Below, in pieces: positions 16,365 through 41,262 of a stretch of DNA of 64,000 nt. Positions within the stretch are counted from its first letter, which is position 1; each line of letters opens with the position of its first letter. The position numbers and the translations under genes are program-made. Source of the DNA: Candidatus Poseidoniales archaeon (GTDB taxonomy: Archaea > Thermoplasmatota > Poseidoniia > Poseidoniales > Poseidoniaceae); the NCBI GenBank assembly GCA_019651595.1, contig BOYQ01000006.1:44044-108043 (forward strand). Reading direction: 5' to 3'. A model generated the notes under the pieces. It was not told the DNA's origin and did not search any database. It was given only the letters and a program-made list of their open reading frames with translations.

Positions 16365-18352
16365 ATGTTCGAAGTTTCCTCGGCGGCATCCATTCCCGTC
16401 ATCACGTCGGACGGAATCCGTTTAGCGTACCACAACGGGATCGTTGACCTGACACAGTTCACCGACCAGTTCCCTGTTGGCGACATCGTTGAAAGCCTTG
16501 GTAACACCATCGCCGGCGTGGGCGACATCGAGATGAGCGATCTTCTGTGGGTTTCCCAAGCCGAGGCTGGCGGCGTGTTCGACGTTGCCGGTGGACTCAA
16601 TTTTTCTCACTCAGCAGGGTGCACTGAGCCGGTTGCCGCCGGGCAGGTGCTCCACTATTGCCTCCAAGGACCCAACGCCATGGACGAAACATACCCCGTT
16701 TACCTCCAAACGACCAGTCAACCCTTCTCAATGCGGTTCATCGACATCATCATCGCTCAGGGGGACGATGATGAATTCAAAGCCCTGAACGGTTTCCTCG
16801 AGAACGTTCAGAGCAGCGACCTTGAGCGACTGATGAACGCCGGTTTTTCTCTTGAGGCCGTTGTTGGTGAGTCCTTCCTCAACGCAGGTCGACCTGAGCG
16901 GGTTGCCTCCTGCGGACTTGACCGTCGAGATCATCCTTCCCGACTGGGTTACTCACCGTGGACGGTACCTCAACCATCACCTTGACCAAATCGCTTGAGG
17001 CCGCCATTTCCCCTCGACCTTTCCTGACGGGGCTTGACCCCTACGATTGGGAGCACGAGATCACCGACGAAGACGGGCGGGTTCTCTGCTATGCCAATCA
17101 GAGCACGTGTGTGGAGTCGGATGTGGCGCTTGACCTGTCCTCGGTGAACTTCAACGAATGGAGCGGTTCTTTCAGCGTCACGATGGCGCTCGACGCCGAG
17201 CTGAGCATCTACCGTATCGGTTTCGTGAACGGCGAGCGCTGCATCAACGAGCCTGACATCCAAGCTTGTGGTCAGATGGAGGCGTTCCCGTCCGACCTCT
17301 TGCGACTCATCATCGACCTCTCCAGCCGGATGGACGACCCTCTCGACGGCAGCGTTCCGATTCCGTGGTGCGAAAACGATGAAATCAAGTCCAACTTCGA
17401 TGACTGCGACGACCTGCAGCTTGAAGCGACACGCCAAGGCATGAAGGACCTCGCCAACCGACTCGGAGTACTCGCCACCGACGCTATACACGGGTTTGGG
17501 ACGCTGGCCGCTGAGGACGACGACAATCCGTTTGGTGTGGTCGACCTTTCGGCGTTTGAACTCATCACCGGCATCTCAGGCATTGAGGCACCCGATGAAA
17601 TCGTGAGCGACGACGAACCCATCGTTCTCTCGCTTCGTATACCGAAGGTGCGATTCACCATTGGAACGGCCGACGGATGGAGCGGTTTGTCAGACGGCAA
17701 CCCCGAGGACATTCAGTTGAGCATCGTCACCAGCAGCATTCAGTCCGTGTTCCATCAGCCCCTCCAAACGTTGAGCGACGTGATGACCCGAGCCCTGCGG
17801 TCCTCCATCATCGGCGGCGACGGGCTGACCTATCCGCCCACCAACGAGGAAACCATCACCCTCTCCACCGGTCCCGTTGACACCAACTTACCGACCGAAT
17901 ACGAGGGGGTTGAATCCCCCATTGACGGTGCGGCCTACACCGGTCCGATCACGTTCACGCTTCCGCGTGGCGTGACGCTCGTGGACGCTTCCTCTTCAGC
18001 GGGCAACCTGATCATCACCGAGGACGGCGGACGTCAAACGATCACCTACATCGTTCCGCCGGGTGAATTTGAGGACGACCTGACCTTCCGAATTCAAGTT
18101 GGTTGGCTGTACTTCCTGATTCAGTTCTGGGTCTATCCAACCATCGTGCTGCTGCTTGTGGTGATGTTCGTCCGTCGCCGTCGCCTCAAGAAGAAGAAAA
18201 AGAAGGCGGCCATGGCCAACCGGCAGGCGGCGGTCACCAAAGCCCAACTCGGCGACCACGAGTTCGCCGACCTCGCAGGGTTCGCCAGTCCGGCCCTTCG
18301 GCACGGTGAGACGATAGAAGACATGGCTTACATCGATGAATTGTCCCGTTAG
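16365..18352 (+). CDS. large surface protein with C-terminal TM anchor and poly-basic stop-transfer; two frame changes near 16880 and 16955
   Basis: Fragments are 16119/16365-16985 and 16958-18352, bridged by ...QVDLSGLPPADLTVEIILPDWVT in the third frame. The C-terminus is WLYFLIQFWVYPTIVLLLVVMFVRRRRLKKKKKK plus a 55-aa tail. The N-terminus is probably lost in block 15320-16350. Confidence 0.55.
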
Positions 18353-20073
18353 CGCAGGGCTTCGTGGATGCGTTCGGCCAGCGCCGGGCCGATGCCGGGC
18401 ACGGTGACGAGTTCCGAGACAGCGGCGTGCTCGATGCCTTTGCGTCCACCGAAATGTCGGAGCAAGGTTTGGAGTTTCTTGGCGCCGAGCCCCTCCACGC
18501 CCTCCAGCGGGTCGGCCAGACGAGTTCGACTGCGTCGTTTGCGGTGGAAGGTGTTGACGAAGCGGTGGGCTTCGTCGCGAGCGTGAACCAGCACGCGGCC
18601 TGCACGGTCGAGCACGAGCGGGTCGTGGCCGTAGCGGAAGACGGTCTCCTCGCGCTTGGCAAGGGCCGCCAGCGGGAATCGGTCAGCCCAACCGTGCTCC
18701 TCAAGGGCCTGCTGAATGGTGCTCAGGTGGGTTTCACCGCCGTCGATGAGCAGCAGGTCCGGCCATTCTTCCTGGCGCTTCGCCCACCGAACGACGACTT
18801 CCTTCATCATTCGTAAATCGTCAAGAGCATCGCCTTTGACGATGTACTTCCTGTACTCGCTCTTGGCCGGTCGGCCGTTGCGCATCACCACGCTTGCTCC
18901 GACGCGTTCGTCGCCCTGGAGTTGCGCCATGTCGAAACAGACGATGTGGTCGAGTTGGTTCATGCCCAGGGTCTTGGCGCCCTCATCAGCGGCCCGTTGC
19001 TCGAGCGAGCCGCTGGATTTGTTGGCCATGCGTTGCAGTTGAATCTCGGCGTTTTGGCGAGCCAAGGTCGCCAGGTTTTCCAAATCGCCGCGCTGCGGCG
19101 TTCGAACCTCGACGGACGAGCCTCGTCGCTCGTCCAACCACGACTGGAGGCCGTCAAAAACGGGCACGGGCGAGAGCAGTAATCGAGGCGGCGTGCGGTG
19201 GGCGTAGTGTTCGGCGATGAACATCGAGACGGTTTCACCCAGGTCGCCGCGATGAACCGCCGGCCAGGCTTCCTGACCTTGCACGACGCCTTCGTCGGCG
19301 TGGAGGACGACCAGGGCTGCCAAGTCCCCTTCATGGGCAATGCCGATGGCGTCGCAGTCCCGGTAGACCTTGCTGGACACGACGTGTTGGCTCGTCGTCG
19401 CACGAACGGCTCGAATCATGTCGCGGTGTTGGGCGGCCACCTCGTAGGCTTGCGTCTCCGAGGCCGCTTCCATCTCGGCGACCAATTCTTCGAGCAGGGG
19501 TGCAGCGTCGCCGTTGAGCACCCGGCGGACGGTTTTCACCCGTTCGTCGTACCCCGTCCCGTCAATGCACGGCCCGGCGCACAGGCCGATGTGCATGGAC
19601 AGACAGCCTTGGGGAAGCAATTCCTTGCAGTCGCGGATGCCAAACTGCCGTCGAAGGAGCTGCATCACCTGCTTGGCGGCGCCGGCGTTGGGGAAGGGCC
19701 CCCATTGTTGAGCGGATTTTGGCGGCCGCCGCGTGTACATGATGCGGGGGTATTCTTCGTTCGTCATGGCGAGGTAGGGGAAGGATTTCCCGTCCTTGAG
19801 CATGGAATTGAACCGCGGCATGTGCTCGCGAATCAACTGTCGCTCGAGGATGAGGGCGGCTTGGGGGGTTTGGGTGACGATGCACTCGATGTCGTCGGCG
19901 CGCTCCACCAGTTCGGGGATCATGTGGCGGTCGGGGTTGCTGGCAAAGTAAGAGCGGATGCGCTCGTTGAGGCGCGTGGCTTTTCCAACGTAGAGCACCC
20001 GTCCTTGTGCGTTTTTGAACAGGTAGACGCCCGGTTCGTGTGGGAGGTCGGCCGAAGCCAAATCCACGGGCAT
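18349..20073 (-). CDS. uvrC: excinuclease ABC subunit C
   Basis: GIY-YIG motif (GVYLFKNAQGRVLYVGKATRLNERIRSYF), UvrC middle domain and C-terminal (HhH)2 (VPGIGPALAERI). Start chosen at MPVDLAS (20073). Confidence 0.9.
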   Translation of the reverse strand: MPVDLASADLPHEPGVYLFKNAQGRVLYVGKATRLNERIRSYFASNPDRHMIPELVERADDIECIVTQTPQAALILERQLIREHMPRFNSMLKDGKSFPYLAMTNEEYPRIMYTRRPPKSAQQWGPFPNAGAAKQVMQLLRRQFGIRDCKELLPQGCLSMHIGLCAGPCIDGTGYDERVKTVRRVLNGDAAPLLEELVAEMEAASETQAYEVAAQHRDMIRAVRATTSQHVVSSKVYRDCDAIGIAHEGDLAALVVLHADEGVVQGQEAWPAVHRGDLGETVSMFIAEHYAHRTPPRLLLSPVPVFDGLQSWLDERRGSSVEVRTPQRGDLENLATLARQNAEIQLQRMANKSSGSLEQRAADEGAKTLGMNQLDHIVCFDMAQLQGDERVGASVVMRNGRPAKSEYRKYIVKGDALDDLRMMKEVVVRWAKRQEEWPDLLLIDGGETHLSTIQQALEEHGWADRFPLAALAKREETVFRYGHDPLVLDRAGRVLVHARDEAHRFVNTFHRKRRSRTRLADPLEGVEGLGAKKLQTLLRHFGGRKGIEHAAVSELVTVPGIGPALAERIHEALR

Positions 20074-20180
20074 GCCGACACCACGCCTGCCATGACTCAA
20101 AAGGGCAACCCTGTCTCCCCGCAGGCACAACCTTGGGGATGATTGATGAAGGAGGCGGCCGAGCGTTTCCTGTCGTTCCC

Positions 20181-22352
20181 ATGCTGAGCCGAAGCCAGGA
20201 GAAACTCTTGCGCTACCTCGGGGGATTCCCCGATGCTCTTTCCCAGGCATGGGACGTTCCTCGGGAGGTCTCTTTGCCGGGGTTATCGGACGCCATGGGC
20301 GTCGTTCGTTCCGGCCTCAACCAGCCGCTGAAGGCCCTCTTGGACGCTGCATACATCTCGGTTCGCGTGGCGCACGTCATCGGTGGTGGCGCTCGCCGCA
20401 GGCAGGTGTATCACATCACTGAATCCGGTCGTCGATGGCTGCATGAACACCCTGAGGAAGCCACCAAAGCCAGCACGGCGACCGCATCCAAGGCGCCGCC
20501 GACCACGGCTCTCGTGGGCCGTCAAGCGGAACTTGAGACCCTAACGAACCTGCTCGAAGAGCACGGCCACGCGCTGGTGGGGGGTCTTTCGGGTGTCGGA
20601 AAGACGACGCTTCTGCGAGCGTGGGCGGCTCGGCAAGAAATGGATGTTCGATGGGCAACCGTGGACCAACTCAGCGACGCTGTCGCTCTTGTTGCTCAGT
20701 GGACAAACGGAGCCGAACCGATTCCCGAGGATCTCGAGGCCATGGTGGAGCACCTTGACGTCAGCGGCCCGACCGTGTTGGTGGTGGACGACGTTCATCG
20801 CGTGGACCCACGGCATCAATCGACGGTGGCCGACCTCCTCGATGGGTTACTGGGACGAGGGCATCGTCTGCTGTTGGGCGGCCGGTTACCGGTCCCCGAC
20901 CGGTTTGACTGGCCGTTGCTCCGACTTGGAACACTTCCGGCAGAGGAAGCCGCGACCCTCCTCGGTGAGCACCTCGACGAGGTCACCCGCCTTGACGTGG
21001 CCAAAGCCCTTGACGGTCATCCGATGGCCCTGAATCTCTACCGAGAGGGCGACCCCCTCCCTGAGGCAGGTGCCGACATTCAAGCCTTTGTCGAACAGAC
21101 CATGCTCGACGGTCTGAGCGACGATGCGCTCGAATCGCTTGATGACATGGTGCTTTTTCCACGCCCTCTCCCTTCCGATGAAATCCGTGGAGGGGATCAC
21201 ATCGGTGAACTTGACGAACGTGCTTTGCTCCGCTGGTCGACCAACAACGAGGCGGTCGAAGTGCAACATCTCATCCGCAACGTACGCCGAACGATGCTCG
21301 ACGAGGGGCGACTCTTGGCCCTCCATCGTCGAGCAGCCGACCACTGGGAAGCCCACCTTGCGACCCCTGCCTATGCCGTGCTTCACCTCTATCATCGACT
21401 TGCCCTCGAAGAGGAGGGCCTCGAGGAGATTCTGGCGACCCAGTTTGATCGGTTGATGGTCGACCAAGGCGGTGCTTTGGCCGTCATCTTCGACCGTGCG
21501 ACCCAGCAGCGGCCCGAGGATGAGCAGTTGCACTACTGGGCCGGGCGTATCGCCCTCCACCGTCAAGAAACGCCCAACGTTCGCGAACACCTGGCGTCCG
21601 TCCGCTCCGAGGGGTTGCGTCGAGAACTGGCACACGGGCTCGCCGTGCTGGAGGGCGACACCGATGAAGCGGACCGTTTACTCAACCTCCAACTCGACCA
21701 AGGCGGTGCCGAGGACGGTGCGCGTTGGCTGCTGAAGGCCGCTGTTCAACGCTTGGAAGACCGTCTGTTTGACGAAAAGAACCTACCTGACCTGGCCGCC
21801 GTCCAACGGATGCTTCAACAAATTCAGCTCCCTGAACGTCTCGAACTTCGCTCCTCGATGACCGTGAGCATGAGCCTCGTGCAGCACACGATGGCGCTTC
21901 TCGACGGTGACCGCGAGCGTGCAGAAGCCTTGGTGGAAGGCCTCGAGTCGCTGTCGCATCCCCTCGACCCGATTGTGCTTCGTGCCCGATTCAAAGCCAT
22001 GTTGGCGTTCAACGAAGCTCCTGATACGCATCAGGCAACCTACGAGAAAACGCTGGCTGCGCAGCCGAGTGCGTTCCATCGTGGCGCCGTGGGCTTGACG
22101 TACGCCGAACACCTTGTCCTGCATCAACGCCCTGAGGCACGAGCCCTGTTCGCCTCGCTTCCATCGCCCGACACGTGGTCTGAAACGGGCACGCCTCAAC
22201 ATCGGTACGCCGCACGGTGGTGGTACCTCAAAGGCCACGTTGACCCGTCCTCCGCTGCGGCAGCGCTTCGAGAGTCAGCCCGTTGGTTCCGTCAAGCGGG
22301 CTGCGTGGAGGCAGCAAAAGCGGCGGCTCGTCGGTTGCACCGCGTTCTGTAG
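20181..22352 (+). CDS. wHTH - NB-ARC/STAND P-loop ATPase - TPR-like helical repeat regulator
   Basis: N-terminal winged helix (RRRQVYHITESGRRWL). Walker A GGLSGVGKTTLL, Walker B VLVVDDVH, LGTLPAEEAATLL, and a GxP-like motif DGHPMALNL. A long alpha-helical repeat region follows. Confidence 0.75.
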   Translation: MLSRSQEKLLRYLGGFPDALSQAWDVPREVSLPGLSDAMGVVRSGLNQPLKALLDAAYISVRVAHVIGGGARRRQVYHITESGRRWLHEHPEEATKASTATASKAPPTTALVGRQAELETLTNLLEEHGHALVGGLSGVGKTTLLRAWAARQEMDVRWATVDQLSDAVALVAQWTNGAEPIPEDLEAMVEHLDVSGPTVLVVDDVHRVDPRHQSTVADLLDGLLGRGHRLLLGGRLPVPDRFDWPLLRLGTLPAEEAATLLGEHLDEVTRLDVAKALDGHPMALNLYREGDPLPEAGADIQAFVEQTMLDGLSDDALESLDDMVLFPRPLPSDEIRGGDHIGELDERALLRWSTNNEAVEVQHLIRNVRRTMLDEGRLLALHRRAADHWEAHLATPAYAVLHLYHRLALEEEGLEEILATQFDRLMVDQGGALAVIFDRATQQRPEDEQLHYWAGRIALHRQETPNVREHLASVRSEGLRRELAHGLAVLEGDTDEADRLLNLQLDQGGAEDGARWLLKAAVQRLEDRLFDEKNLPDLAAVQRMLQQIQLPERLELRSSMTVSMSLVQHTMALLDGDRERAEALVEGLESLSHPLDPIVLRARFKAMLAFNEAPDTHQATYEKTLAAQPSAFHRGAVGLTYAEHLVLHQRPEARALFASLPSPDTWSETGTPQHRYAARWWYLKGHVDPSSAAAALRESARWFRQAGCVEAAKAAARRLHRVL

Positions 22353-31286: not shown

Positions 31287-32288
31287 TCAAGCGAACAAGC
31301 GGGCTCGAATCTTGCGCAGGCTGAGCCTGAGGCCCAGAAGCCCCTTTCGCAAGGTGGACAACTTCACCGGTTGCGTGAACACATCGCCGGATCGGCGAAC
31401 GATTTCGTTGAGAATGGAGGTGTAAGCATCGGCCATGATCTCCGGTTGCACCCTTGCTCGACCGTCGAGGTAGCCAAAGAGGTGGTTAGCGGAAGTTTGG
31501 TGACGCTTGATCACGTCAACGTATTCGACGACGAAGCCCTTCCATGCAAGGGTTTCAGCGATGGTCTCGGTGCTCAACATTTCGAGGGAGATGTTGTGCG
31601 TTGCAAGCACCTCAAGCGGGAGGTAAATTCGGCCCCGTTCGAGGTCTTCATTGATGTCGCGAAGCACGTTGATGAGTTGCATTTGGATGCCCAAATCGAT
31701 GGCGTGAAGACGGGCCGCACGGTCCTCGTAGCCGTAGATTTCAATCAGAATGAGGCCCACGGCAGAGGCGACTTTGTAGCAGTAGGATCGAAGTTCGTCC
31801 CACGTTTGGTTTCGGACGGGATAAAGGTCGTCTTCCATGCCTTCAATGACGGTTTCGAAATCGGCGAGTTTGATGGGGTAGCGGTTGAAGACGTCCTGAA
31901 GCGCGATGAAAATCGGGTGATCATCATCCGACAGGGTTTGGTCGGCCGCCTCCTCGAGTTTGAGACGAATGTCCACCAGCGCCATCATTCGTCGTCGGTG
32001 CTCATCGGGCGCCAACGAGGGCGTGGCCCCTGCGTGGAGTTCGTTCACGACGGCTTGGCGGCGTTCGGTCGCTTCTCGCAGGGCCTCGGTTTCCAGGATG
32101 GTGGGCTCTTCATCGCCGTCAACGATGTCGTCAACCCATCGGCACAAGGCGTAAACGGCGTGAACCGCACGGCGTTTGTCGAGCTGGAGAGCACTGAACG
32201 AGGAATAGAACGTGGTGGACGCGTTTCGACACACGGCCTCGCAAAACGCATAGGCCTCGTCAAGACGGTGCTGTTCCATGGTGACCAC
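31287..32288 (-). CDS. crtB: phytoene synthase
   Basis: Squalene/phytoene synthase motifs: YAFCEAVCRNASTTFYSSF, YALCRWVDDIVDG, DINEDLERGRIYLP. Confidence 0.9.
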   Translation of the reverse strand: MVTMEQHRLDEAYAFCEAVCRNASTTFYSSFSALQLDKRRAVHAVYALCRWVDDIVDGDEEPTILETEALREATERRQAVVNELHAGATPSLAPDEHRRRMMALVDIRLKLEEAADQTLSDDDHPIFIALQDVFNRYPIKLADFETVIEGMEDDLYPVRNQTWDELRSYCYKVASAVGLILIEIYGYEDRAARLHAIDLGIQMQLINVLRDINEDLERGRIYLPLEVLATHNISLEMLSTETIAETLAWKGFVVEYVDVIKRHQTSANHLFGYLDGRARVQPEIMADAYTSILNEIVRRSGDVFTQPVKLSTLRKGLLGLRLSLRKIRARLFA

Positions 32289-33926
32289 TCAAGCAGATGT
32301 TGGGGTGCCGCTTGACGGTTCTTTTGAGGTTTTGTTGAGGGCAGCCCGCCCTTGCTTGGAGCGCTTACGACTCTCAAACCACGTGTCAACGCCGTTCCAG
32401 TCAGGGATGATGCCCAAGCTGTCGAGCAGCAACTTGCTGCTGATGCGGGCGGATTCGTAAATCACGGGCAGGCCGCTGCCGGGGTGGGTGCCGCCGCCGA
32501 CAAGGTAGAGGTTGTTGATCTCGTCAAACTGGTTCTTTGGTCGTCGCCAGAGCATCTGGTCGAGCCCGTGAGCCAAGTTGAACACGGCCCCTCGGTAGCA
32601 GTGGTCGCCCCAGTCTTCGGGCGTGATGATCATCTCGGTCACGATGTGGTCTCGCAGGCCTTCAAAGCCAAGTTTCTCTTCAATCTGGTCGAGCACACGG
32701 TCCCTGTAGGCGTCCTTTTCCTTTGACCAGTCGATGTTTTCATGGATGTGGGAAACGGGAACGAGGGCGTAAACGGTAGAGCAGCCCTCGGGGGCCAGAC
32801 TCGGGTCGACCACGCATGCGTTTTGAACGTAGACCGACGGATCGTCCCACGTCAGTTTGTGGTTCTTTTCGATGTCTTCGAGGTTCTTCTGATAGTTGGC
32901 AGAAGCGTAGATTTGGTGGTGCGGGAGGTCTTCGTAGGTTTTGTCAATGCCCAGGTAAATCATGAAGGTCGAGCAGGAATATTTCTTGCCGTCGAGCTTT
33001 TTGTTGCTCCACTTCTTGCGGACGTTGTCGGGGAAGAGTTGGGTCATCCCCTGGGCAAAGTCAGCGTTCATGACGACTTTGTCAGCAAAGAATTCGCCTT
33101 GCTTGGTGCGAACACCCTTGATGGTCTTGCCGTCCATGATGACCGATTCAACGGCTTCGTTCATGCGGAACGTGACGCCGAGGTCCTTGGCGATGCTCGC
33201 CATGCGTTCACTGACGCTGCCCAGTCCACCGATCGGGTGGAAAATGCCGTATTCGTATTCGAGGAAGGCGAGCATGGTGAACAGGCTGGGGCAATTAAAC
33301 GGGGACATGCCGAGGTACTTGGTTTGGAACGACATGGCCAACATCAACCGGTCGTCGTCAAAGAGTTTCATCAAATCGCCAGCGACCGAGCGCTGAGGGC
33401 GGAGGACGCCGGCCACGCGCATGGCTCGCTTGGAGAGAAGGTCGGTGGGGCCGTACCAGGGCTCCTGGAGGCAGGCCTTTGACTTGTGGAGTTTCACACG
33501 GTTGTCCGCCACGTACCGTCGGAAGGCGTTGGCGTTGTGGTCGCCGGAGAGCTCACGGATGCGTTCGGTCATTTCGTCGAGGTCGCTGGTGCAGTCGAGT
33601 TGACCGCCCTGACCGAAGATAAGTCGGTAGTTGAGGTCCAACTTGTGCAGGTTAAGTTCCTCGTGAGCATCCATGCCAATGGCCTTGAAAATGTCCTCAA
33701 TGACTTCGGGGTAGTGGAAGAACGTCGGTCCGAGGTCGAACTTGAACCCGTCTCGGTCAAACACTTTGTTTCGACCGCCAACGGCGCTGGAGCGCTCGAA
33801 AACCGTGACGTCAACGCCCGATTTTGCCAGCAACAGAGCGGATGCGAGACCGCCCGGGCCTGCCCCGATGATGGCCACTTTTGGTTGAGAACTTCCAGTC
33901 ATGGTTCCCGCTGAGCGCTTAGGCAT
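32289..33926 (-). CDS. crtI: phytoene desaturase (CrtI family FAD-dependent oxidoreductase)
   Basis: Rossmann motif KVAIIGAGPGGLASALLLAKSG...ERSSAVGGR and C-terminal LYLVGGGTHPGSGLP. Its stop abuts the crtB start. Confidence 0.9.
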   Translation of the reverse strand: MPKRSAGTMTGSSQPKVAIIGAGPGGLASALLLAKSGVDVTVFERSSAVGGRNKVFDRDGFKFDLGPTFFHYPEVIEDIFKAIGMDAHEELNLHKLDLNYRLIFGQGGQLDCTSDLDEMTERIRELSGDHNANAFRRYVADNRVKLHKSKACLQEPWYGPTDLLSKRAMRVAGVLRPQRSVAGDLMKLFDDDRLMLAMSFQTKYLGMSPFNCPSLFTMLAFLEYEYGIFHPIGGLGSVSERMASIAKDLGVTFRMNEAVESVIMDGKTIKGVRTKQGEFFADKVVMNADFAQGMTQLFPDNVRKKWSNKKLDGKKYSCSTFMIYLGIDKTYEDLPHHQIYASANYQKNLEDIEKNHKLTWDDPSVYVQNACVVDPSLAPEGCSTVYALVPVSHIHENIDWSKEKDAYRDRVLDQIEEKLGFEGLRDHIVTEMIITPEDWGDHCYRGAVFNLAHGLDQMLWRRPKNQFDEINNLYLVGGGTHPGSGLPVIYESARISSKLLLDSLGIIPDWNGVDTWFESRKRSKQGRAALNKTSKEPSSGTPTSA

Positions 33927-33972
33927 ATAAATGGCGGTTTTTGTTCATAAAAAATTTATGAAAAATAACACT
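33927..33972 (-). promoter_or_regulatory. AT-rich spacer with TATA-like box upstream of crtI
   Basis: A 46-nt, strongly AT-rich gap in a GC-rich genome. The minus strand reads ...cataaattttttatgaacaaaaaccgccatttatATG. The T/A box lies about 20-30 nt before the ATG. Confidence 0.4.
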
Positions 33973-35241
33973 TCATTCGCTGGTCGGAAGGATGTTGTTC
34001 GGGTCGATGAGAACCGAGAATTCGTCGAGGTAAGGGCCCATGGAACTGATGAGATCCACGTTGGGGTGACCTTTGAGCACCATGCCGTCCATGTACATCA
34101 ACGAACGGATGATGGGAAACGCCTCCTCGCCGAAGGCACACCCCGCCAGCACGGCAGCTTTGACCGTCTTCATCATCTGCTCCGTCAGTGAAACCTCGCT
34201 GACGGACGTGCCAACGAACCCGTCGTAGAGTTCGTTCATTGAGTCGTAGTAGGTTTGCAGGGTGCTGCCGGTCGGACGGACCGCTGCCATCGTCAGCATG
34301 GCATCGAAGGCGTTTTTGAGTTCACCCTTGGCGAGGAAATAGAAGAAACCGAACAGGGCGTTTCGAACATGCTCAGGTGCGTTACAAATGGCACCGGTGT
34401 CGATGAAAAAGAAGTTACCTTGGTCGTCCATCATGGCGTTGCCCGGGTGCAAATCACCGTGGAAGGTGCCAAGCCCGAACATGAACGCCCCGTGGATGCG
34501 AAAGAGTTCAAGCATGTCGGGCCAGGTCAAGGTGCCCGCTTCGAGGTGGTCTTCGAGGGTCGGGTGGGTGATTTCCTCCATGACCAGCACGCGCTCGTTG
34601 GAGAGGTTCTCCCACATGGTGGGGAATTTCAATTTCGGCATGGGAAAGTGCTCCTCGATGTTGTTGGCTCTTGCGATGAGCTGACGGCGGCCATCGATTT
34701 CGTTGAGGAGGTTCAGTTCTCGAACGGTGTAGTCTTCGATGTGGGCCAACAGGCCGAGAGGGTTGCCGACCTTCCGAAGCTTTGGACGGAAGAACAGACC
34801 CATTCGAATCCAACGTTTCATTCGTTGGACGTCCTGCTTGAAGTTGTCTTCAAAATCGGATTTGATGACTTTCACCACCACCTTGGTGCCGTCCTTGAGG
34901 ACGCCGCGGTGGATTTGGCCAATGCTGGCCGCTGCAAACGGCTTCATGTCGAGGTGCTCGAAATGGTCGAGAAACCCTTCAGGGGCAAATCGGTTCAGCA
35001 GGCGTTGTGAGTCTTCCTCGGGAATGGTGGCGGCTCTGCTGTAGAGCTGCTGGAGTTCAATGCAGCGTTGGGGTTCGATCAAATCCGGTCGGAGCGCGAA
35101 GATTTGCCCCAGTTTAACGGCCAGCAGACCCATCGATTGAATGGCGTCGATGTCGACCGGTTTCTTTCCCTTGATTTGTCGAAAGAACCGGATGAACGTC
35201 GCGAGTTTCATGGGGCTCACCCGCTTAATCGACCAGTTCAA
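33973..35241 (-). CDS. ubiB: ABC1/UbiB-family atypical protein kinase
   Basis: LGQIFALRPDLI, AAASIGQIHRGVLKDGTKVVVKV, FHGDLHPGNAMMD. Confidence 0.85.
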   Translation of the reverse strand: MNWSIKRVSPMKLATFIRFFRQIKGKKPVDIDAIQSMGLLAVKLGQIFALRPDLIEPQRCIELQQLYSRAATIPEEDSQRLLNRFAPEGFLDHFEHLDMKPFAAASIGQIHRGVLKDGTKVVVKVIKSDFEDNFKQDVQRMKRWIRMGLFFRPKLRKVGNPLGLLAHIEDYTVRELNLLNEIDGRRQLIARANNIEEHFPMPKLKFPTMWENLSNERVLVMEEITHPTLEDHLEAGTLTWPDMLELFRIHGAFMFGLGTFHGDLHPGNAMMDDQGNFFFIDTGAICNAPEHVRNALFGFFYFLAKGELKNAFDAMLTMAAVRPTGSTLQTYYDSMNELYDGFVGTSVSEVSLTEQMMKTVKAAVLAGCAFGEEAFPIIRSLMYMDGMVLKGHPNVDLISSMGPYLDEFSVLIDPNNILPTSE

Positions 35242-36626
35242 TCGTGTTCAATTCGTGCCGGTGAATGAGGTAGCGCCAGAGGTCGTCCTTGTCCCCGTTC
35301 CCTTCCACACGCTGAATCACCACGTTGGCTTCTTTCGCAAATCGGGTTGAGAGGGCGCCTTCGATGATTCCGTCGTCCATCTCCCACATCGGGAGGGCGT
35401 CCGGGTCGTCAACCGGTGGGTGGTTGAGGCCGACAACGACGTGGAATTGCGGGTCGACGTCGTACTGCAGCAAGCCCAGTCCAGCGTGTTCCCACCAGTC
35501 CATCATTTCGTCGAGGAATTCGATATCGTTTTCTATAGAACGCAGGGAGAAGGCGATTTCTTGCCCCACACGGTTGCCGATTTGACGCAGCATACGACTG
35601 ATGTCAATGCCCAGCACCTTGAGGTTGGACAGCTTTCCTTCCGTGAGGCGGCTGCGGGCTTCGTTCACCTCGTGGCCAGCGGCGAAAAAACGCCTCAGGG
35701 TCAAACGGTGTGTCTTCCTCCGGAAGCTGACCGTCAAAGCCGAGGGCGACAGAGACGTTCTTCAGGAATGAACCTTCACCGATGGTCAATCGAAGCGGGT
35801 CGTTGATCTGGTTTTCCGTGAAACGAGCACGGGCGGTCGCCAGCGGAACGGCGCCTTCCCAAATGGCATCGATCAGGTGAAGATGCGCTTGGGAGAACGG
35901 TCCTGACTCGATGATGAGGGCGGCGTCTTCTTTTCCTCGGCCAACCGGGTTGTCCTCGATGTTGAGGTACTGGATGACTTCGGCTTGGTCTTGGACAAAG
36001 CCCAGTGAATCCAATTCGTCCGAGTGTCGAACATCGATGCTCTTCTCCAACTGGTCAAAGAAGCGCAAGGTGCGGCCGTCCAAGTGGGTGATGATTTGGA
36101 CCACGACGCCCCGCACGGCTGCGGTGTTGACCGCCTCCAGCGCATCGGGGCTTCGGCAAAGATGGAGAATACCAAACTGACCCAAGAGTAAGATGAGCCG
36201 TTCCTCGGCATCGTTGGCCATCTTTTGCAGGCGGTTGTAAATGTGGCTGCGCTCCTTGAGCACGGCGAACCTTGGGTCATCGATGTCGCGACGTTGTTTC
36301 TCGTACGAAGCGTCGGTTTCCGTGATGCCTTTGGACAGCTCTTCAAACCCCTCCACCAAGCGGTCAAGTTGTTGTTTTCGAGACTGAATGATGTGCTCCA
36401 TGGCCTCGTTGATGCGGAGGCTGGAAAACAGCATCGGCCGGTCGGCCGTGGCGGTGACGATGCCCATCTCTTGGAGCCGTGAGAGGCTGTTGTAGGCGTC
36501 AAGACGGGTGGTGTTCAGTTCCTTGGCGAGTTCGGAAGCCTTCATTTTCGGTCGGGAACCAAGGATCATGATGGAACGAACCTCTCGTTCGTTCAGCCCG
36601 GCCTCCAGGAGTAACTCGTCCCACAT
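35225..36626 (-). CDS. TrmB-family transcriptional regulator with V4R-like C-terminal domain; one frame change at the T6/A6 run 35685-35690
   Basis: N-terminal TrmB wHTH (MKASELAKELNTTRLDAYNSLSRLQEMGIV). Fragments 35604-36626 and 35225-35737 join as ...DTPFDPEAFF|AAGHEVNEARS. The tail resembles a 4-vinyl-reductase (V4R) fold. Confidence 0.7.
35531..35540. repeat. palindrome TTCTATAGAA (copy 2, inside TrmB-like CDS)
   Basis: Exact 10-mer. Read as CGT TCT ATA GAA AAC (RSIEN). Confidence 0.9.
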
Positions 36627-37099
36627 CAGCCGTCACCTCGGACTTGTGAGATGTCGGCCAGGATTTTGGCCACGTGCCGTCGAGGCCGGAAGAGCCAGTC
36701 GTACACGTACTGGATGGTGTTGTCAGGCCCGATAAGGAAGGAGGATTTTGCGGGGAACTGGCCGAGGTGAACGGGGACGTTAAACATCTTCCCGACGATG
36801 CGTTCGGGGTCGGCCAGCAACGGGAACGGGAGGTCGCCGAGTGTGTTTTTGAACCCGGCCAGCTCTTCCGTGGTGCCCGGGCCGATGCCGACGATGGAGC
36901 AACCCACAGAGGCAAACAAGTCATGTTGCTCCTTGAACGTCAAGCACCCGCGCTTGCAAGTTGGTGAGTTGTTTCTTGAATAGAAGAAAACGATGCGCCA
37001 GGTGCCGTCCAACGACGTGCTGTCAAAGACTTCGCCATGCTCGTTCTCAAGGGAGAATCGAGGAGCATCTTGTCCGACGATGTTGGTTCGCATGGTCAT
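36626..37099 (-). CDS. bcp: peroxiredoxin (Bcp/PrxQ-type, AhpC/TSA family)
   Basis: ...WRIVFFYSRNNSPTCKRGC...; thioredoxin fold. ATGA overlap with the downstream trmB-like gene. Confidence 0.8.
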   Translation of the reverse strand: MTMRTNIVGQDAPRFSLENEHGEVFDSTSLDGTWRIVFFYSRNNSPTCKRGCLTFKEQHDLFASVGCSIVGIGPGTTEELAGFKNTLGDLPFPLLADPERIVGKMFNVPVHLGQFPAKSSFLIGPDNTIQYVYDWLFRPRRHVAKILADISQVRGDG

Positions 37100-37102
37100 T
37101 CC

Positions 37103-37714
37103 TCAGTTTGGAAGCAGATGACCCATCCTCGCGCCTTTGGTTTTCATGTACGACCGATTCTGGGCGCACTGGCCCACGATGATCGGCACTCGATTGGTAA
37201 CCTCGATGCCGTGGTCGAGGAGTTGGTCCCGCTTGTCGGGGTTGTTGGTGACCAGCTCGACGGAGGTGATGCCCATTGAGTACAACATTTCTGCTGCGAA
37301 ATCGTACTTTCGGGCGTCAGCGGGGAGGCCCAGAGCAAGGTTAGCGTCGAGGGTGTCGAGTCCGGTGTCTTGAAGGGCATAGGCCTGCATTTTCGAGTAC
37401 AGGCCGATGCCTCGACCTTCCTGACGCATGTAGGCGATAGCGCCTTGGCCACGTTCCTGAATCGCCTTCATTGAGGCATGGAGTTGTGGTCCGCAATCAC
37501 AGCGAAGAGAATGGAAGGCGTCGCCCGTGAGGCATTCGGAGTGGACCCGGACCAAGGGCGAGCCGCTTGTAAGATCGCCAACGTAAAGGACGGCGTGTTC
37601 CTTACCGTCGACCGGATCTCGGAAGGCTCGGATTCGAAAATCTCCGAATTCAGTGGGGAGCAGAGCGTCCGCTTCGGGGACGCTGTTAATGCGACGAATA
37701 CCAGCGCCTTCCAT
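37103..37714 (-). CDS. ribA: GTP cyclohydrolase II (monofunctional, bacterial type)
   Basis: VRVHSECLTGDAFHSLRCDCGPQL, YMRQEGRGIGL. Start chosen at MEGAGIR (37714), because a TATA box lies 23-30 nt upstream. Confidence 0.9.
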   Translation of the reverse strand: MEGAGIRRINSVPEADALLPTEFGDFRIRAFRDPVDGKEHAVLYVGDLTSGSPLVRVHSECLTGDAFHSLRCDCGPQLHASMKAIQERGQGAIAYMRQEGRGIGLYSKMQAYALQDTGLDTLDANLALGLPADARKYDFAAEMLYSMGITSVELVTNNPDKRDQLLDHGIEVTNRVPIIVGQCAQNRSYMKTKGARMGHLLPN

Positions 37715-37810
37715 GTTACAAAATCTACTGAGTTTGTATATAAACACTCGTCTTTTTCTTACAGGGACTCAAACTGCGTTTGATATACTGGGCTGATGAA
37801 ATATTGAGTG
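37715..37810. promoter_or_regulatory. bidirectional AT-rich promoter region (ribA operon <-> nudix-phr operon)
   Basis: tatataaa at 37737-37744 (TTTATATA on the minus strand) lies 23 nt from the ribA ATG. gatatact at 37782-37789 lies 22 nt from ATG 37811. No SD motif is present, consistent with leaderless archaeal mRNAs. Confidence 0.5.
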
Positions 37811-38314
37811 ATGGTCAGCCTGCTTTGTGATTTGGGCGTGGCCGCAAGGGTGGTCCGGGACGGGCAAATTCTTCTCGTCCAAGAGGCCTCAGGTCCCCAT
37901 CAAGGAAAGTGGGGCTTTCCCAAAGGACGGGTCGACCCGGGTGAAAGCCCCGAGGCCGCATCGCTGCGGGAACTCTTCGAGGAATCCGGTCATGAAGGGC
38001 GCGTCATGGGGCTGGCAGGGGTCCGTACGGCCCTCCGAAAAGGCCAACCCGCCGTGTTTCTCTGCTACGACGTGCACGTTGACACCGATGTTGAGCATCA
38101 CACGAACGAAGAAATTTCGAGCACTGCGTGGTTCACGCTGGGCCAGTGTGCGGCCCTTGATTGGGTTTCAGAAACCATGCATCAATTGGCCGTCGACGGG
38201 TTGACTCGACGAAGTTTGATGCGAAACCAAGCCGGTCTTACTCCCCGAACCAACCCGTACGCCGTGTATCGAACAAGCAAAACAGAGAACGTTCAGCGAG
38301 GTGGCTTGTCGTGA
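37811..38314 (+). CDS. NUDIX hydrolase
   Basis: Nudix box GKWGFPKGRVDPGESPEAASLRELFEESG. Confidence 0.85.
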   Translation: MVSLLCDLGVAARVVRDGQILLVQEASGPHQGKWGFPKGRVDPGESPEAASLRELFEESGHEGRVMGLAGVRTALRKGQPAVFLCYDVHVDTDVEHHTNEEISSTAWFTLGQCAALDWVSETMHQLAVDGLTRRSLMRNQAGLTPRTNPYAVYRTSKTENVQRGGLS

Positions 38315-39855
38315 TTCCCAGCAGCCGTCTGAAGATTCACGGCGTTCCCAACGATGCCGGTGAAGTCGTCGTGTATTGGATGACGGCAGCTCGAAGAGCA
38401 CAGTGGAACCACGCCCTTCAGCACGCTGTGGACCTGGCCAAGCAACACAACGTCCCGCTGGTTGTCATCGAGTGTCTGGCCCTTCAACATCGCTGGGCGA
38501 ACGATCGCATCTCCACCTTCGTTCTTCAGGGCATGGTGGACAACCGCGCCGCCTTTGATGGGACCACCGTGACCTACATCCCCTACGTCGAAACCAAGCG
38601 AAAACAAGCCTCTGGCCTTCTCAAGGGTTGGCTTGAGCACGCACGAGCTTGCGTCATTGACGACTACCCAACCTACTACCCCAAGCACGTGTTGAACGTG
38701 GCCCTGTCCGTTATCCCCTGCGAGATTCACGTCGTGGATTCCAACGGGTTCATGGCCATGCGGGCTCAGGGAAGGGATTTCTCGACCGCTTATTCCCTTC
38801 GCCGTCATCTCCACAAAACGATTCGGGAGCACATGCACGAGTTTCCACAGCGCCGCCCGCTCGAGGCTGCCACCGATCTCCCTCCGGCAGACCCCGCTCT
38901 GGTCAAAGCGATTTTTGCTCAAACCAACACCCCCATCACGCCCTACGAATTCCTCTGGCGCGTTTCGGAGGGTGGCGACATCGGAAGGGAAGCCCTCTCA
39001 ACCCTCAGCATTGACCACGAGGTCCAGCCCGTGATGGGCAAGAAAGGCGGTTTTGTTGAGGGCCGTCGCCGCTGGAAAGAATTCTTTGCCGACCGCCTCC
39101 AGACCTACCATGAAAAGCGGAACGAGCCCCAGGAACGGGGGGCCAGCGGCCTCTCGCCTTGGTTGCATTACGGGCACGTGAGTGTTCACGGGATTCTTCA
39201 CGACATCTTCACCCACCATCGATGGGACGTCAGCATGGTCAATGCACCCAACGACGGACGACGTCAAGGTTGGTGGGGCCTGCCCGAACCCGTTGAAGCC
39301 TTCCTCGACCAAATCATCACCTGGCGGGACATTGGCTTCATCCACTGCGCCATGGTGGAAAACCACACGGAATACGAATCCTTGCCCGAGTGGGCGAAAA
39401 CCACGCTGGCGGAACACGAAGCTGACGTGCGACCTTACCTCTACACCCTCGAGGAACTTGAAAATGCTCAGACGCACGACCCGTTGTGGAACGCTGCACA
39501 ACAGCAACTCCGTCAGGAAGGCATCATTCACAACTACCTCCGCATGCTTTGGGGGAAGAAAATCCTCGAGTGGTCTCCCGACCCTCAGACGGCCATGGAC
39601 CACATGATCGCCCTCAACGACCGATGGGCGTTGGACGGTCGCGACCCCAACTCCTACACCGGGATTGGCTGGGTGATGGGGAAGTTCGACCGGGGGTGGA
39701 CCGAGCGCGCCGTGTACGGCAAGGTTCGATGCATGACCAGTGCTTCGACGGCCCGGAAATTCAAAACCAAAGGCTACGTCGAAAAATACACGGCTCCCAC
39801 GGATTCCTCAAAGGTGCTCGGCTCTGGGCCATCGTTTTATTCCGCTCATCAATGA
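38311..39855 (+). CDS. phr: class II CPD deoxyribodipyrimidine photolyase
   Basis: VVYWMTAARRAQWNHAL...; C-terminal IHNYLRMLWGKKILEW...NDRWALDGRDPNSYTGIGW...GKVRCMT. GTG start overlaps the nudix stop (GTGA). Confidence 0.85.
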   Translation: MIPSSRLKIHGVPNDAGEVVVYWMTAARRAQWNHALQHAVDLAKQHNVPLVVIECLALQHRWANDRISTFVLQGMVDNRAAFDGTTVTYIPYVETKRKQASGLLKGWLEHARACVIDDYPTYYPKHVLNVALSVIPCEIHVVDSNGFMAMRAQGRDFSTAYSLRRHLHKTIREHMHEFPQRRPLEAATDLPPADPALVKAIFAQTNTPITPYEFLWRVSEGGDIGREALSTLSIDHEVQPVMGKKGGFVEGRRRWKEFFADRLQTYHEKRNEPQERGASGLSPWLHYGHVSVHGILHDIFTHHRWDVSMVNAPNDGRRQGWWGLPEPVEAFLDQIITWRDIGFIHCAMVENHTEYESLPEWAKTTLAEHEADVRPYLYTLEELENAQTHDPLWNAAQQQLRQEGIIHNYLRMLWGKKILEWSPDPQTAMDHMIALNDRWALDGRDPNSYTGIGWVMGKFDRGWTERAVYGKVRCMTSASTARKFKTKGYVEKYTAPTDSSKVLGSGPSFYSAHQ

Positions 39856-39864
39856 GGCCGTTCC

Positions 39865-41262
39865 ATGCCAACGTACACTCACGTCGCAACCTACGATGCA
39901 CCCGTTGAAGACGTCTGGGCATGGTACGACAGCCCCGGTGCCTTCCGACGCATCATGCCGGAATGGGAGGGGATTAAACCGCTGGAGGCGGGCCGCTTGG
40001 TCAACGATGCCACCACCCGATTTCGTGTGTCCCTCGGGCCGCTTCGCCCGATGTGGGTGGCTCGTCACTACGACGTCGTGGCTGGAGAAGTCTTCAACGA
40101 CGTGATGGAAAAAGGTCCCTTCGGTGCTTGGGACCACGAACATCGCTTTGTTCCAACGGGCGACAACACCAGCGAAATTCGCGACACCATCCAGTGGAAA
40201 CTGCCGTTCCATCCGCTGACGTTCTGGACGGCTCCCTTCACCGTCAAGGGCCGAATGAACCAAATGTTTGCCTACCGAACCCATCGGGTCCAGGAGGACC
40301 TCCGACGGATTTCACAGTACGCCGACCTTCCCAAACAGCGGGTGCTCGTGAGCGGTTCAACTGGACTGATCGGCCTTCAACTCTGCGCGTTCCTTCAAGC
40401 CGCCGGGCACGAAGTCGTTCGATTGACTCGTCCCTCGACCGTTCTTCCTCCCGATGTCACCGACCAACCTTGTGTGGTGTGGGACGACCAAACCGGCGAG
40501 GTCCTCGAGGGAAGTCTGGAAGGCTTTGACACGGTGATTCACCTCGCCGGTGCCGGCATCGGCGACAAGCGCTGGAACGCCGAGCGAAAGGCGCTCATCC
40601 GTTCGAGCCGAACCGTGCCGACCGAGAACTTGGTTCGGCTTTTCTCAACCCTCGAAACGCCACCGAAAACCTTCCTCTCCGGTTCCGCCGTGGGCTACTA
40701 CGGCAACCGAGGCGACGAGCAGTTGACCGAATCATCGCCCGCCGGCGACGGGTTCTTGTCGCAACTGGCCCAAGACTGGGAAGCGGCCGCTGCGCCGGCA
40801 CAAGACCTTGGCATCCGCACCGTCTGGATGCGCACCGGCATCATCACCACGCCCATGGGCGGGGCCCTCCAACCCATGCTCCTCCCGACCCTGCTCGGTG
40901 CAGGCGGGCCGCTGGGCGGCGGCCGTCAGTACCAATCGTGGATTTCGCTCCACGACCACGTTTACGCCACCTACCACCTGATGATGACCGAAACATGCGA
41001 AGGAGCCTACAACCTCACGGCGCCCGAGCCGGTCATGCAGAAGCACTATGCGAAAACGCTTGGAAAGGTCCTGCTCCGACCATGGTTTGCTCCTGCACCC
41101 GGTTTTGTCCTCAGGGTCATGTTTGGAGAACTGGCTCAAGCGCTCATTTTGGACGGCCAACGCGTGCTCCCCCAGCGCTTGCTGGACAGCGGGTTCGTCT
41201 TTTCTCACGAAGGTCTTGAGTCGTGCCTGCGTGAATGCCTCGGCAAGCAAAAATCGGCTTGA
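39865..41262 (+). CDS. SRPBCC (START/cyclase-like) domain fused to YfcH-type NAD-dependent epimerase (TIGR01777 + DUF1731)
   Basis: N-terminal about 150 aa resemble an SRPBCC fold. Then VLVSGSTGLIGLQL (Rossmann) and C-terminal ...QRVLPQRLLDSGFVF. Confidence 0.8.
   Translation: MPTYTHVATYDAPVEDVWAWYDSPGAFRRIMPEWEGIKPLEAGRLVNDATTRFRVSLGPLRPMWVARHYDVVAGEVFNDVMEKGPFGAWDHEHRFVPTGDNTSEIRDTIQWKLPFHPLTFWTAPFTVKGRMNQMFAYRTHRVQEDLRRISQYADLPKQRVLVSGSTGLIGLQLCAFLQAAGHEVVRLTRPSTVLPPDVTDQPCVVWDDQTGEVLEGSLEGFDTVIHLAGAGIGDKRWNAERKALIRSSRTVPTENLVRLFSTLETPPKTFLSGSAVGYYGNRGDEQLTESSPAGDGFLSQLAQDWEAAAAPAQDLGIRTVWMRTGIITTPMGGALQPMLLPTLLGAGGPLGGGRQYQSWISLHDHVYATYHLMMTETCEGAYNLTAPEPVMQKHYAKTLGKVLLRPWFAPAPGFVLRVMFGELAQALILDGQRVLPQRLLDSGFVFSHEGLESCLRECLGKQKSA

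Follow-up and report, generated by a model that had tools for sequence, protein, structure and literature searches.

The 64,000-nucleotide stretch of DNA analyzed here (hereafter the window) corresponds to positions 44044–108043 of contig C6 in a metagenome-assembled genome (MAG) of 1.79 Mb, comprising 12 contigs and estimated to be 64% complete. The names attached to near-identical proteins assign the source organism to the genus Poseidonia, family Poseidoniaceae (MGIIa), within the order Poseidoniales of the Marine Group II (MGII) archaea. Few archaea of sunlit ocean waters are as abundant; to our knowledge, no member of the group has been cultured and their ways of coping with light are known solely from gene lists. 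The subject of this report is a set of nine genes at positions 31287–41262 of the window, in which an earlier note, made from the DNA letters, had seen a photoprotection and repair island transcribed as two divergent arrays under a single light- or oxidative-stress regulon. Both the cluster and its conservation are borne out, and the evidence presented below makes it rather probable that it constitutes a modular sunlight-stress gene cluster of Poseidonia organized as three leaderless units.

Gene identities were obtained from Pfam and NCBIfam profile searches, in which equivalog assignments were judged against the curated cut-offs. Both sets of profiles bore out the nine genes that had been named, of which six lie on the minus strand (31287–37714: SQS_PSY, crtI, abc1, trmB/V4R, bcp and ribA) and three on the plus strand (37808–41262: nudix, phr and yfcH). 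The features of the locus are as follows.

31287–32288, minus strand: SQS_PSY-family synthase, crtB-like (PF00494, 211.8 bits; start GTG 32288 or ATG 32279)
32289–33926, minus strand: crtI, CrtI-family FAD desaturase (TIGR02734, 491.7 bits against a cut-off of 238.1)
33903–33972, minus strand: putative internal promoter region of crtI-crtB (TTTATAT at ∼33927–33933; from an 11-species Poseidonia alignment)
33973–35241, minus strand: abc1, UbiB/ABC1-family atypical kinase-like ATPase (PF03109, 125 bits; likely start ATG 35211)
35225–36626, minus strand: trmB/V4R, TrmB-family regulator with a C-terminal V4R/Bet3/H-NOX-like ligand domain (split by one additional T at 35685–35690)
36626–37099, minus strand: bcp, Bcp/PrxQ-type peroxiredoxin (PF00578, 82.5 bits; PTC motif at residue 46)
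37103–37714, minus strand: ribA, GTP cyclohydrolase II, a second copy located in the island (TIGR00505, 234.9 bits against a cut-off of 205.85)
37715–37810, between the two arms: divergent promoter spacer with opposed TATA boxes at 37737–37744 (ribA) and 37782–37789 (nudix)
37808–38314, plus strand: nudix, Nudix hydrolase (PF00293; start GTG 37808 or ATG 37811)
38311–39855, plus strand: phr, class II cyclobutane pyrimidine dimer (CPD) photolyase (matches to Methanosarcina mazei 2XRY/8OET and rice 3UMV; TIGR00591, 349.8 bits)
39865–41262, plus strand: yfcH, fusion of SRPBCC with a YfcH/SDR39U1-type (ThyD-like) epimerase fold (TIGR01777, PF08338, PF01370 and PF03364)

The spacing of +3 between ribA and bcp, the spacing of 0 between crtI and crtB, the GTGA overlap of nudix with phr and the 9-nt gap before yfcH all agree with the sequence, and uvrC, placed by the earlier note ∼11 kb away, maps to 18349–20250. 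Other junctions required correction. The supposed ATGA overlap of bcp with trmB/V4R reads TGATG, an overlap of 1 nt, and a 17-nt overlap of trmB/V4R with abc1 would need a TTG start of abc1. Because the alignments of abc1 relatives start at residues 8–11 of the long open reading frame (ORF), translation more likely begins at ATG 35211, leaving a 13-nt gap. The G+C content of the minus-strand arm (window positions 32001–38000) is 56–57% against 59–63% in its flanks, and the GC skew flips sign at the divergent spacer, as a strand switch would predict.

Conservation of gene order and promoters

Synteny was inferred by searching 60 relatives with a concatenated-protein query and scoring five candidates per genome. 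In at least ∼30 of 36 Poseidonia species, yfcH, phr and nudix diverge in this arrangement from ribA-bcp-trmB/V4R-abc1-crtI-crtB, with phr-yfcH and trmB/V4R divergent on one contig; the rest are interrupted by contig ends. No counter-example to this order was present among the matches listed, in which the crtB-like gene also follows crtI in all Poseidonia relatives. The full order, including nudix, recurs in two further genera (g13 and g15) at 40–71% protein identity, the lowest values being ∼40–53%. The survey of MGII relatives that had been named beforehand as a test of the island returned a gene order kept across three Poseidoniaceae genera. A fourth genus of the family, g14 (genome G125), is without abc1, phr and the regulator gene.

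Outside Poseidoniaceae, in two other families, the cluster resolves into recombining modules. The abc1 and crtI genes are adjacent in G037, G039, G043, G045, G047 and G050; the order abc1-crtB'-crtI, with a single crtB-like gene in between, is found in G051 and G054 and also in SIMO Bin 19-2 (genes 659–661; PMC9723583 supplement); and abc1 lies 6 kb from crtB-crtI in G042. The ribA-bcp-trmB/V4R module faces phr-yfcH, with no nudix gene, in G042, G043 and G051, and bcp is kept beside the regulator gene in G042, G043, G045, G047 and G051. In these families yfcH either adjoins phr or directly faces abc1-crtI, the latter with no photolyase gene in G037, G039 and G050. Of the two linkages that had been singled out as non-standard, that of the ubiB-like gene with crtI is the sturdiest of the cluster, the two being neighbors or near-neighbors in three families. 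The coupling of nudix with the photolyase gene is present in the Poseidoniaceae genera g1, g13 and g15 and fails in Thalassarchaeaceae, where phr lies directly at the divergent promoter. Since the arrangement is kept across genera and families, it is more than a chance neighborhood, which supports the view that these genes form a unit maintained by selection.

The 96-nt spacer shared by the two arms (37715–37810) contains the TATA-like boxes that had been described, TTTATATA lying 22 nt upstream of the ribA ATG and GATATACT lying 21 nt upstream of the nudix ATG. An alignment of 12 species showed no variation in either box or in the block immediately upstream of each; the distance from the nudix box to the nudix ATG (21–22 nt) is constant too, but the sequence over that distance varies. 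Locus L020 (G012:C1, ∼128127–128430), in which the spacer and the ribA start read as N, was left out of this alignment.

A third box of the same kind, TTTATAT, is conserved upstream of crtI in 11 Poseidonia species, preceded by the conserved blocks TGTTATTTTT and AACAAAAACC. This box overlaps the first crtI ATG, and the second ATG, at 33902, follows 21 nt downstream of it. The stretch between the two ATG codons shows no protein-level conservation. Given the position of the conserved TATA box and the fact that crtI alignments to relatives start near residue 8, the true start is probably ATG 33902; the 46-nt spacer between abc1 and crtI that had been described hinges on the first ATG. The TATA-to-ATG distance of 21–22 nt is invariant over the 11–12 species aligned, and the intervening sequence of crtI varies, as does that of nudix. 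This geometry is what leaderless archaeal transcripts would have. Because a conserved TATA box of equal geometry precedes crtI, the data suggest three transcription units (ribA-bcp-trmB/V4R-abc1, crtI-crtB and nudix-phr-yfcH) in place of the two arrays that had been proposed as a single regulon.

Gene products and the link to light

Comparison of the predicted desaturase with Pantoea CrtI (4DGK) gave an E value of 1e-78 over residues 17–504, consistent with its score above the TIGR02734 cut-off and with membership of the CrtI family. The equivalog models of the synthase all score below cut-off, the best being HpnD (194.7 against 278.6 bits) and the CrtB models reaching 144 against 550, 97 against 500 and 90 against 480, and its best matches in the PDB are CrtM structures (8IS6 and 5IYS). 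With these sub-cut-off scores and CrtM as the best structural match, the statement that CrtB and CrtI make lycopene is not established for this locus.

The source genome encodes a proteorhodopsin on contig C1 and carries a second carotenoid cluster, of canonical type, at C3:66099–70579, in which crtI2 (minus strand) diverges from crtB2-crtY-blh. This cluster probably makes retinal, which would render the island carotenoid genes dispensable for that purpose in the source genome. Only 12 of 37 Poseidonia species were found to carry crtI2 and blh, yet proteorhodopsin is present in nearly all, from which it follows that most species are without a recognizable retinal-forming enzyme. In species that are without crtI2, the island pair may feed retinal too. 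These observations bear on an alternative in which crtB-crtI, together with abc1, would mainly supply lycopene for proteorhodopsin retinal, and the island would support light harvesting and not photoprotection. The alternative draws on the scarcity of crtI2 and blh, which might leave the island pair as the sole desaturase route in other species, on the presence of crtI in all four proteorhodopsin-bearing genomes of other families and on the light regulation of retinal synthesis proposed by Damashek et al. It is opposed by the complete separate cluster in the source genome and by the 7 of 11 crtI-bearing genomes outside the genus that are without a rhodopsin. Furthermore, the island contains no cyclase or cleavage enzyme, and species without crtI2 and blh show no detectable blh at all. 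On balance, we consider it unlikely that retinal supply is the main function of the island pair.

A pair of SQS_PSY paralogues distinct from the island gene occurs in every Poseidoniales genome tested, with or without crtI, and lies at C4:80180–82516 in the source genome. In SIMO Bin 19-2, this pair adjoins an amine oxidase gene annotated crtD_1, an HpnCDE-like layout. It is crtD_1 that was significantly repressed in the dark (Damashek et al. 2021). The possibility that this dark-repressed “crtD” is the island crtI was considered and rejected, as the former has the gene number 41 and neighbors the universal SQS_PSY pair, and the latter is gene 661. In Thalassarchaeaceae, a gene for an ABA4-like (PF14108) membrane protein follows crtI (L025:367–5045 and L026:15025–15462; G042 and G043); no such gene was found in the 64% complete source genome. 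In G042, a MutY-like glycosylase (HhH-GPD and NUDIX_4), a Rieske protein and a further amine oxidase are encoded between abc1 and crtI. The ABA4-like gene and these additional genes fit a theme of carotenoid metabolism and oxidative damage.

Inspection of the abc1 product reveals the motifs KLGQ43, AAASIGQIH103, VVVKV121, HGDLHPGN261 and IDTG280, which place it in the UbiB/ABC1 family. Its scores against the UbiB equivalogs are far lower than the cut-offs (158.7 against 487.6 bits for TIGR01982 and 109.6 against 667 for NF003404), and by this measure it does not qualify as an ortholog of the ubiquinone-pathway protein UbiB. No membrane helix is predicted (maximum Kyte-Doolittle (KD) hydropathy of 1.3), and the nearest relatives in the PDB are mycobacterial ABC1 ATPases. 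Outside the genus, abc1 accompanies crtI in 9 of the 11 genomes that carry the latter and is missing from all 7 genomes without crtI (Fisher p = 0.002, phylogeny ignored). Among 151 Thermoplasmatota genomes, ABC1 of the cluster type was found in Poseidoniales only; the query for this phylum-wide search comprised abc1 and 33 residues of crtI and is informative on abc1 alone. In the literature searched, no description was found of a ubiB-crtI gene cluster or of the island as a whole.

The RibA protein of the island carries the zinc motif C-x10-C-x-C at residue 61, and its score above the TIGR00505 cut-off identifies it as a GTP cyclohydrolase II. It is additional to a housekeeping copy at C3:170539–171129, with which it is 59% identical. 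In the other families, a second ribA is found in all four genomes that encode proteorhodopsin and in none of the 14 that do not. The same four genomes are the only ones outside the family with an ortholog of the regulator (>45% identical), and three of them encode a class II photolyase. Such co-occurrence with proteorhodopsin supports a link between the island and light; the co-occurrence of rhodopsin and photolyase in the order had already been observed by Rinke et al. (PMC6461757). In G047 (C4:213282–214764), an island-type second ribA directly adjoins the proteorhodopsin gene on the same strand.

Synthesis of FO, the deazaflavin, was also tried as a reason for the additional ribA and was rejected as uninformative, as TIGR03551-like matches occur twice per genome regardless of photolyase and are all below cut-off. 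These CofH-like radical-SAM genes are found in nearly all Poseidoniales (∼265–300 bits against a cut-off of 374) and are probably MqnC and MqnE of the futalosine menaquinone pathway rather than FO synthase.

The photolyase aligns over its full length (residues 19–496) with the M. mazei enzyme 2XRY/8OET (E ∼1e-72; 9e-72 for 2XRY), consistent with class II, at a TIGR00591 score that lies below the curated cut-off of 550 bits. The protein encoded downstream of it belongs to the YfcH family (303.4 bits against a cut-off of 207.35 for TIGR01777; 65 bits for PF08338, DUF1731). For the Nudix hydrolase, the Nudix box GRVDPGESPEAASLRELFEESG is found at residue 40, and its designation as MutT-like is not borne out, no equivalog reaching its cut-off (TIGR00586, 29.4 against 97.9; NF008044, 29.5 against 148). 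Elsewhere in the source genome (C1:404884–407262, minus strand), a fusion of ∼780 residues combines a photolyase-like N-terminal half with an amine-oxidase-type FAD domain, and ORFs of similar length (∼750–800 residues) are present in both Poseidoniaceae and Thalassarchaeaceae.

The TrmB-family regulator

The earlier note had treated trmB::V4R as one open frame. In the assembly it is read as two ORFs in different frames (35604–36626 and 35225–35737), which join (…PFDPEAFF/AAGHEVNEA…) only when one T is removed from the run of six at 35685–35690. The closest relative has five T at this site, and other relatives have TTCTT(C/T). An intact regulator of 466 residues is the norm in the protein database, the best match (P0002, 97% identical) representing 434 member sequences, and the region around the junction is conserved. 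Other genes of the same assembly also appear broken, namely crtY on contig C3, whose frame is lost after about residue 230, and crtI2, which has an in-frame TGA. As relatives are intact, the junction is conserved and further genes of the assembly look broken, the frameshift is most likely an assembly error.

Membership of the TrmB family is indicated by the profile PF01978 (34.7 bits against a cut-off of 25.6). The structure was approached through the AlphaFold model of the 97%-identical intact homologue (mean pLDDT of 73.7), which was compared with known structures by Foldseek. The best matches were TrmBL2 (5BPD, E 5e-13) and TrmB (3QPH, E 5e-10), which the model resembles in its winged helix, coiled coil and PLD-like domain. 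The C-terminal domain modeled alone (pLDDT of 82) matched the BcsD, Bet3/TRAPP and H-NOX folds (TM scores of 0.47–0.53, E 7e-4 to 1e-2), with no solved V4R chain among the best 50 fold matches, and Pfam V4R gave no match to the regulator at E < 0.01. Residues 39–150 of the C-terminal ORF match the MsvR model with an E value of 7e-9, at a score (35.8 bits) below its cut-off of 220, and relatives of the regulator carry the JGI label “predicted hydrocarbon binding protein.” A common fold has been proposed for V4R, Bet3 and H-NOX. Taken together, the MsvR match and the Bet3/H-NOX-type fold of the model favor a V4R-like small-molecule pocket, and they support such a pocket without proving membership of the V4R family. 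No conserved cysteine is present in the V4R-like part, which makes a thiol switch in the style of MsvR unlikely.

A bolder proposal, which we put forward tentatively and would not expect to hold in full, is that TrmB-V4R represents a new class of archaeal sensor-regulator that reads a hydrophobic metabolite dependent on light or oxidation and switches all three promoters, and that the UbiB-family ATPase is a required partner of CrtI. Candidate ligands would be intermediates of carotenoid or prenyl metabolism, photoproducts of flavins and tetrapyrroles.

Proposed working and relation to known systems

From the observed gene identities, promoter geometry and its conservation, synteny and co-occurrence, we infer biochemical roles, a response to light and targets of the regulator according to the following model. 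Transcription of ribA2-bcp-trmB/V4R-abc1 and of nudix-phr-yfcH would diverge from the 96-nt spacer, and that of crtI-crtB would start from its own TATA box. The CrtB-like synthase and CrtI would produce a membrane carotenoid, with the soluble UbiB-family ATPase aiding access of CrtI to its very hydrophobic prenyl substrate. The class II photolyase would repair cyclobutane pyrimidine dimers, and the extra GTP cyclohydrolase II would boost the flavin supply to the two enzymes that use FAD, photolyase and CrtI, and perhaps to a photolyase antenna. Bcp would clear peroxides, and TrmB-V4R, as a one-component regulator, would sense a hydrophobic small molecule and probably act on the promoters of the cluster. 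The reading of the locus as a photoprotection and repair neighborhood is well supported by comparative genomics; that it is a single regulon, that it is controlled by light and that TrmB-V4R exerts this control are hypotheses.

Several observations weigh against this model. With regard to the gene products, the regulator gene is broken in the assembly, no equivalog model assigns a substrate to the Nudix hydrolase, and profiles assign the synthase product neither to C40 phytoene nor to C30. An FO synthase is not demonstrable, the CofH-like matches being universal in the order and below cut-off. With regard to regulation, the conserved spacer blocks (mismatches allowed) and the pattern of the nudix TATA region have no further occurrence in the 1.79-Mb assembly, and these blocks could be merely core promoter elements (BRE/TATA). 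The co-occurrence figures come from incomplete MAGs and are uncorrected for kinship. The genomes G037, G039, G045 and G050 carry abc1-crtI-yfcH yet encode no rhodopsin and no photolyase, so that this module is not strictly bound to light. Finally, in a dark incubation, the island-type crtI of a Thalassarchaeaceae MAG had a log2 fold change of −2.4 with an adjusted p of 0.21, ribA_2 was unchanged and crtB was not significant (PMC9723583); phr, yfcH and ubiB are not among the entries of the supplementary table concerned.

The dark-incubation results and the absence of a shared operator from those searches would also be expected if the cluster were no more than an inherited order in compact genomes, made up of separately regulated housekeeping and stress genes, with TrmB-V4R controlling something else. 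Synteny by descent is indeed to be expected within one genus. By contrast, the modules re-associate differently across three families, with joint gains and losses, and the divergent promoter region between ribA and phr is kept across two families at 45–68% protein identity. Simple inheritance of order therefore appears improbable, somewhat more so than the retinal-supply alternative considered above. A third alternative, in which the ABC1 protein serves quinone (menaquinone) metabolism like UbiB and is a mere passenger beside crtI, takes its appeal from a family best known from quinone biosynthesis and from the two Mqn-/CofH-like radical-SAM genes per genome that hint at a futalosine pathway, and it is very hard to reconcile with the absence of abc1 from all seven crtI-less Poseidoniales tested, in which the radical-SAM genes are kept, with the low UbiB equivalog score and with the missing C-terminal membrane helices.

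Returning to the sunlight-stress cluster, its yfcH product resembles ThyD/YfcH/SDR39U1 proteins (TIGR01777) in its epimerase-fold domain with DUF1731, and the two-domain SRPBCC-YfcH architecture is known from PDB 3OH8. It differs from ThyD in having no thylakoid context and in its score against the ThyD model (238.7 against a cut-off of 400). In Anabaena, high light induces the YfcH homologue ThyD, which the organism requires under such light (PMC11711299).

The ABC1 protein shares with UbiB/COQ8 and with the ABC1K proteins of plastoglobules the KxGQ motif, Ala-rich loop, catalytic Lys, HxDxHPGN and DFG-like motifs as well as a connection with prenyl-lipid or carotenoid metabolism. Unlike them, it is a protein of ∼412 residues with no membrane helices, falls far below the UbiB cut-off and, in an archaeon, is genetically bound to crtI. 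Aiding access to quinone precursors is the presumed function of UbiB/COQ8 proteins, and the molecular role of the family, which extends to human COQ8 disease and plant plastoglobules, is debated. The order-wide linkage of abc1 with crtI adds independent archaeal genetic evidence for action of the family on non-quinone prenyl lipids. Were CrtI to require ABC1, the island would provide the first prokaryotic genetic system for direct tests of what the UbiB family does in carotenoid, and not quinone, metabolism.

MsvR of methanogens, which combines a winged helix with a V4R redox-sensing domain, is likewise an archaeal one-component regulator encoded beside oxidative-stress genes. In the island protein, by contrast, the DNA-binding half is a full TrmB/TrmBL2-type module with winged helix-turn-helix (wHTH), coiled coil and PLD-like domain, the V4R-like part has no conserved cysteine and the score against the MsvR model is far below its cut-off.

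In our reading, the island is an archaeal counterpart to the bacterial light-inducible carotenoid and photolyase clusters, in which the regulator would be of a new kind and CrtI would have a partner from the UbiB family. In CarH/LitR systems (Myxococcus, Thermus and Bacillus), class II LitR systems (Pseudomonas) and CrtR systems (Corynebacterium), the regulator is likewise encoded in or beside carotenoid or photolyase genes (PMC6739363 and PMC9758184), and divergent promoters are also a shared feature. Nearest in content are the Pseudomonas LitR regulons, which include phrB, an SDR protein, an FAD oxidoreductase and a GTP cyclohydrolase (folE) for the chromophore (PMC9758184). The folE product is of type I, in contrast to the type II enzyme of the island, which belongs to the flavin branch. 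The association of the second GTP cyclohydrolase II with photolyase and rhodopsin parallels the light-induced folE of Pseudomonas and suggests a general rule that light regulons bring their own cofactor supply.

The differences are substantial. The island regulator is of the TrmB family with a V4R-like part and has no MerR, B12-binding, LOV or MarR domain; none of the CarH/LitR-type domains (MerR regulator, B12-binding or LOV partner) was found by Pfam or NCBIfam in the nine cluster proteins. The island promoters are archaeal TATA-box promoters of leaderless geometry, and the island includes a UbiB-family ATPase. Light induction is a property of the bacterial clusters and a hypothesis for the island. 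The likeness to CarH/LitR regulons is functional at most and is not one of membership. The cluster offers parts that could be expressed in other hosts, namely three short promoters, one candidate regulator and a CrtI/UbiB pair, and if the sensor proposal for TrmB-V4R were true, it would represent an archaeal counterpart of CarH, LitR and CrtR assembled from unrelated parts.

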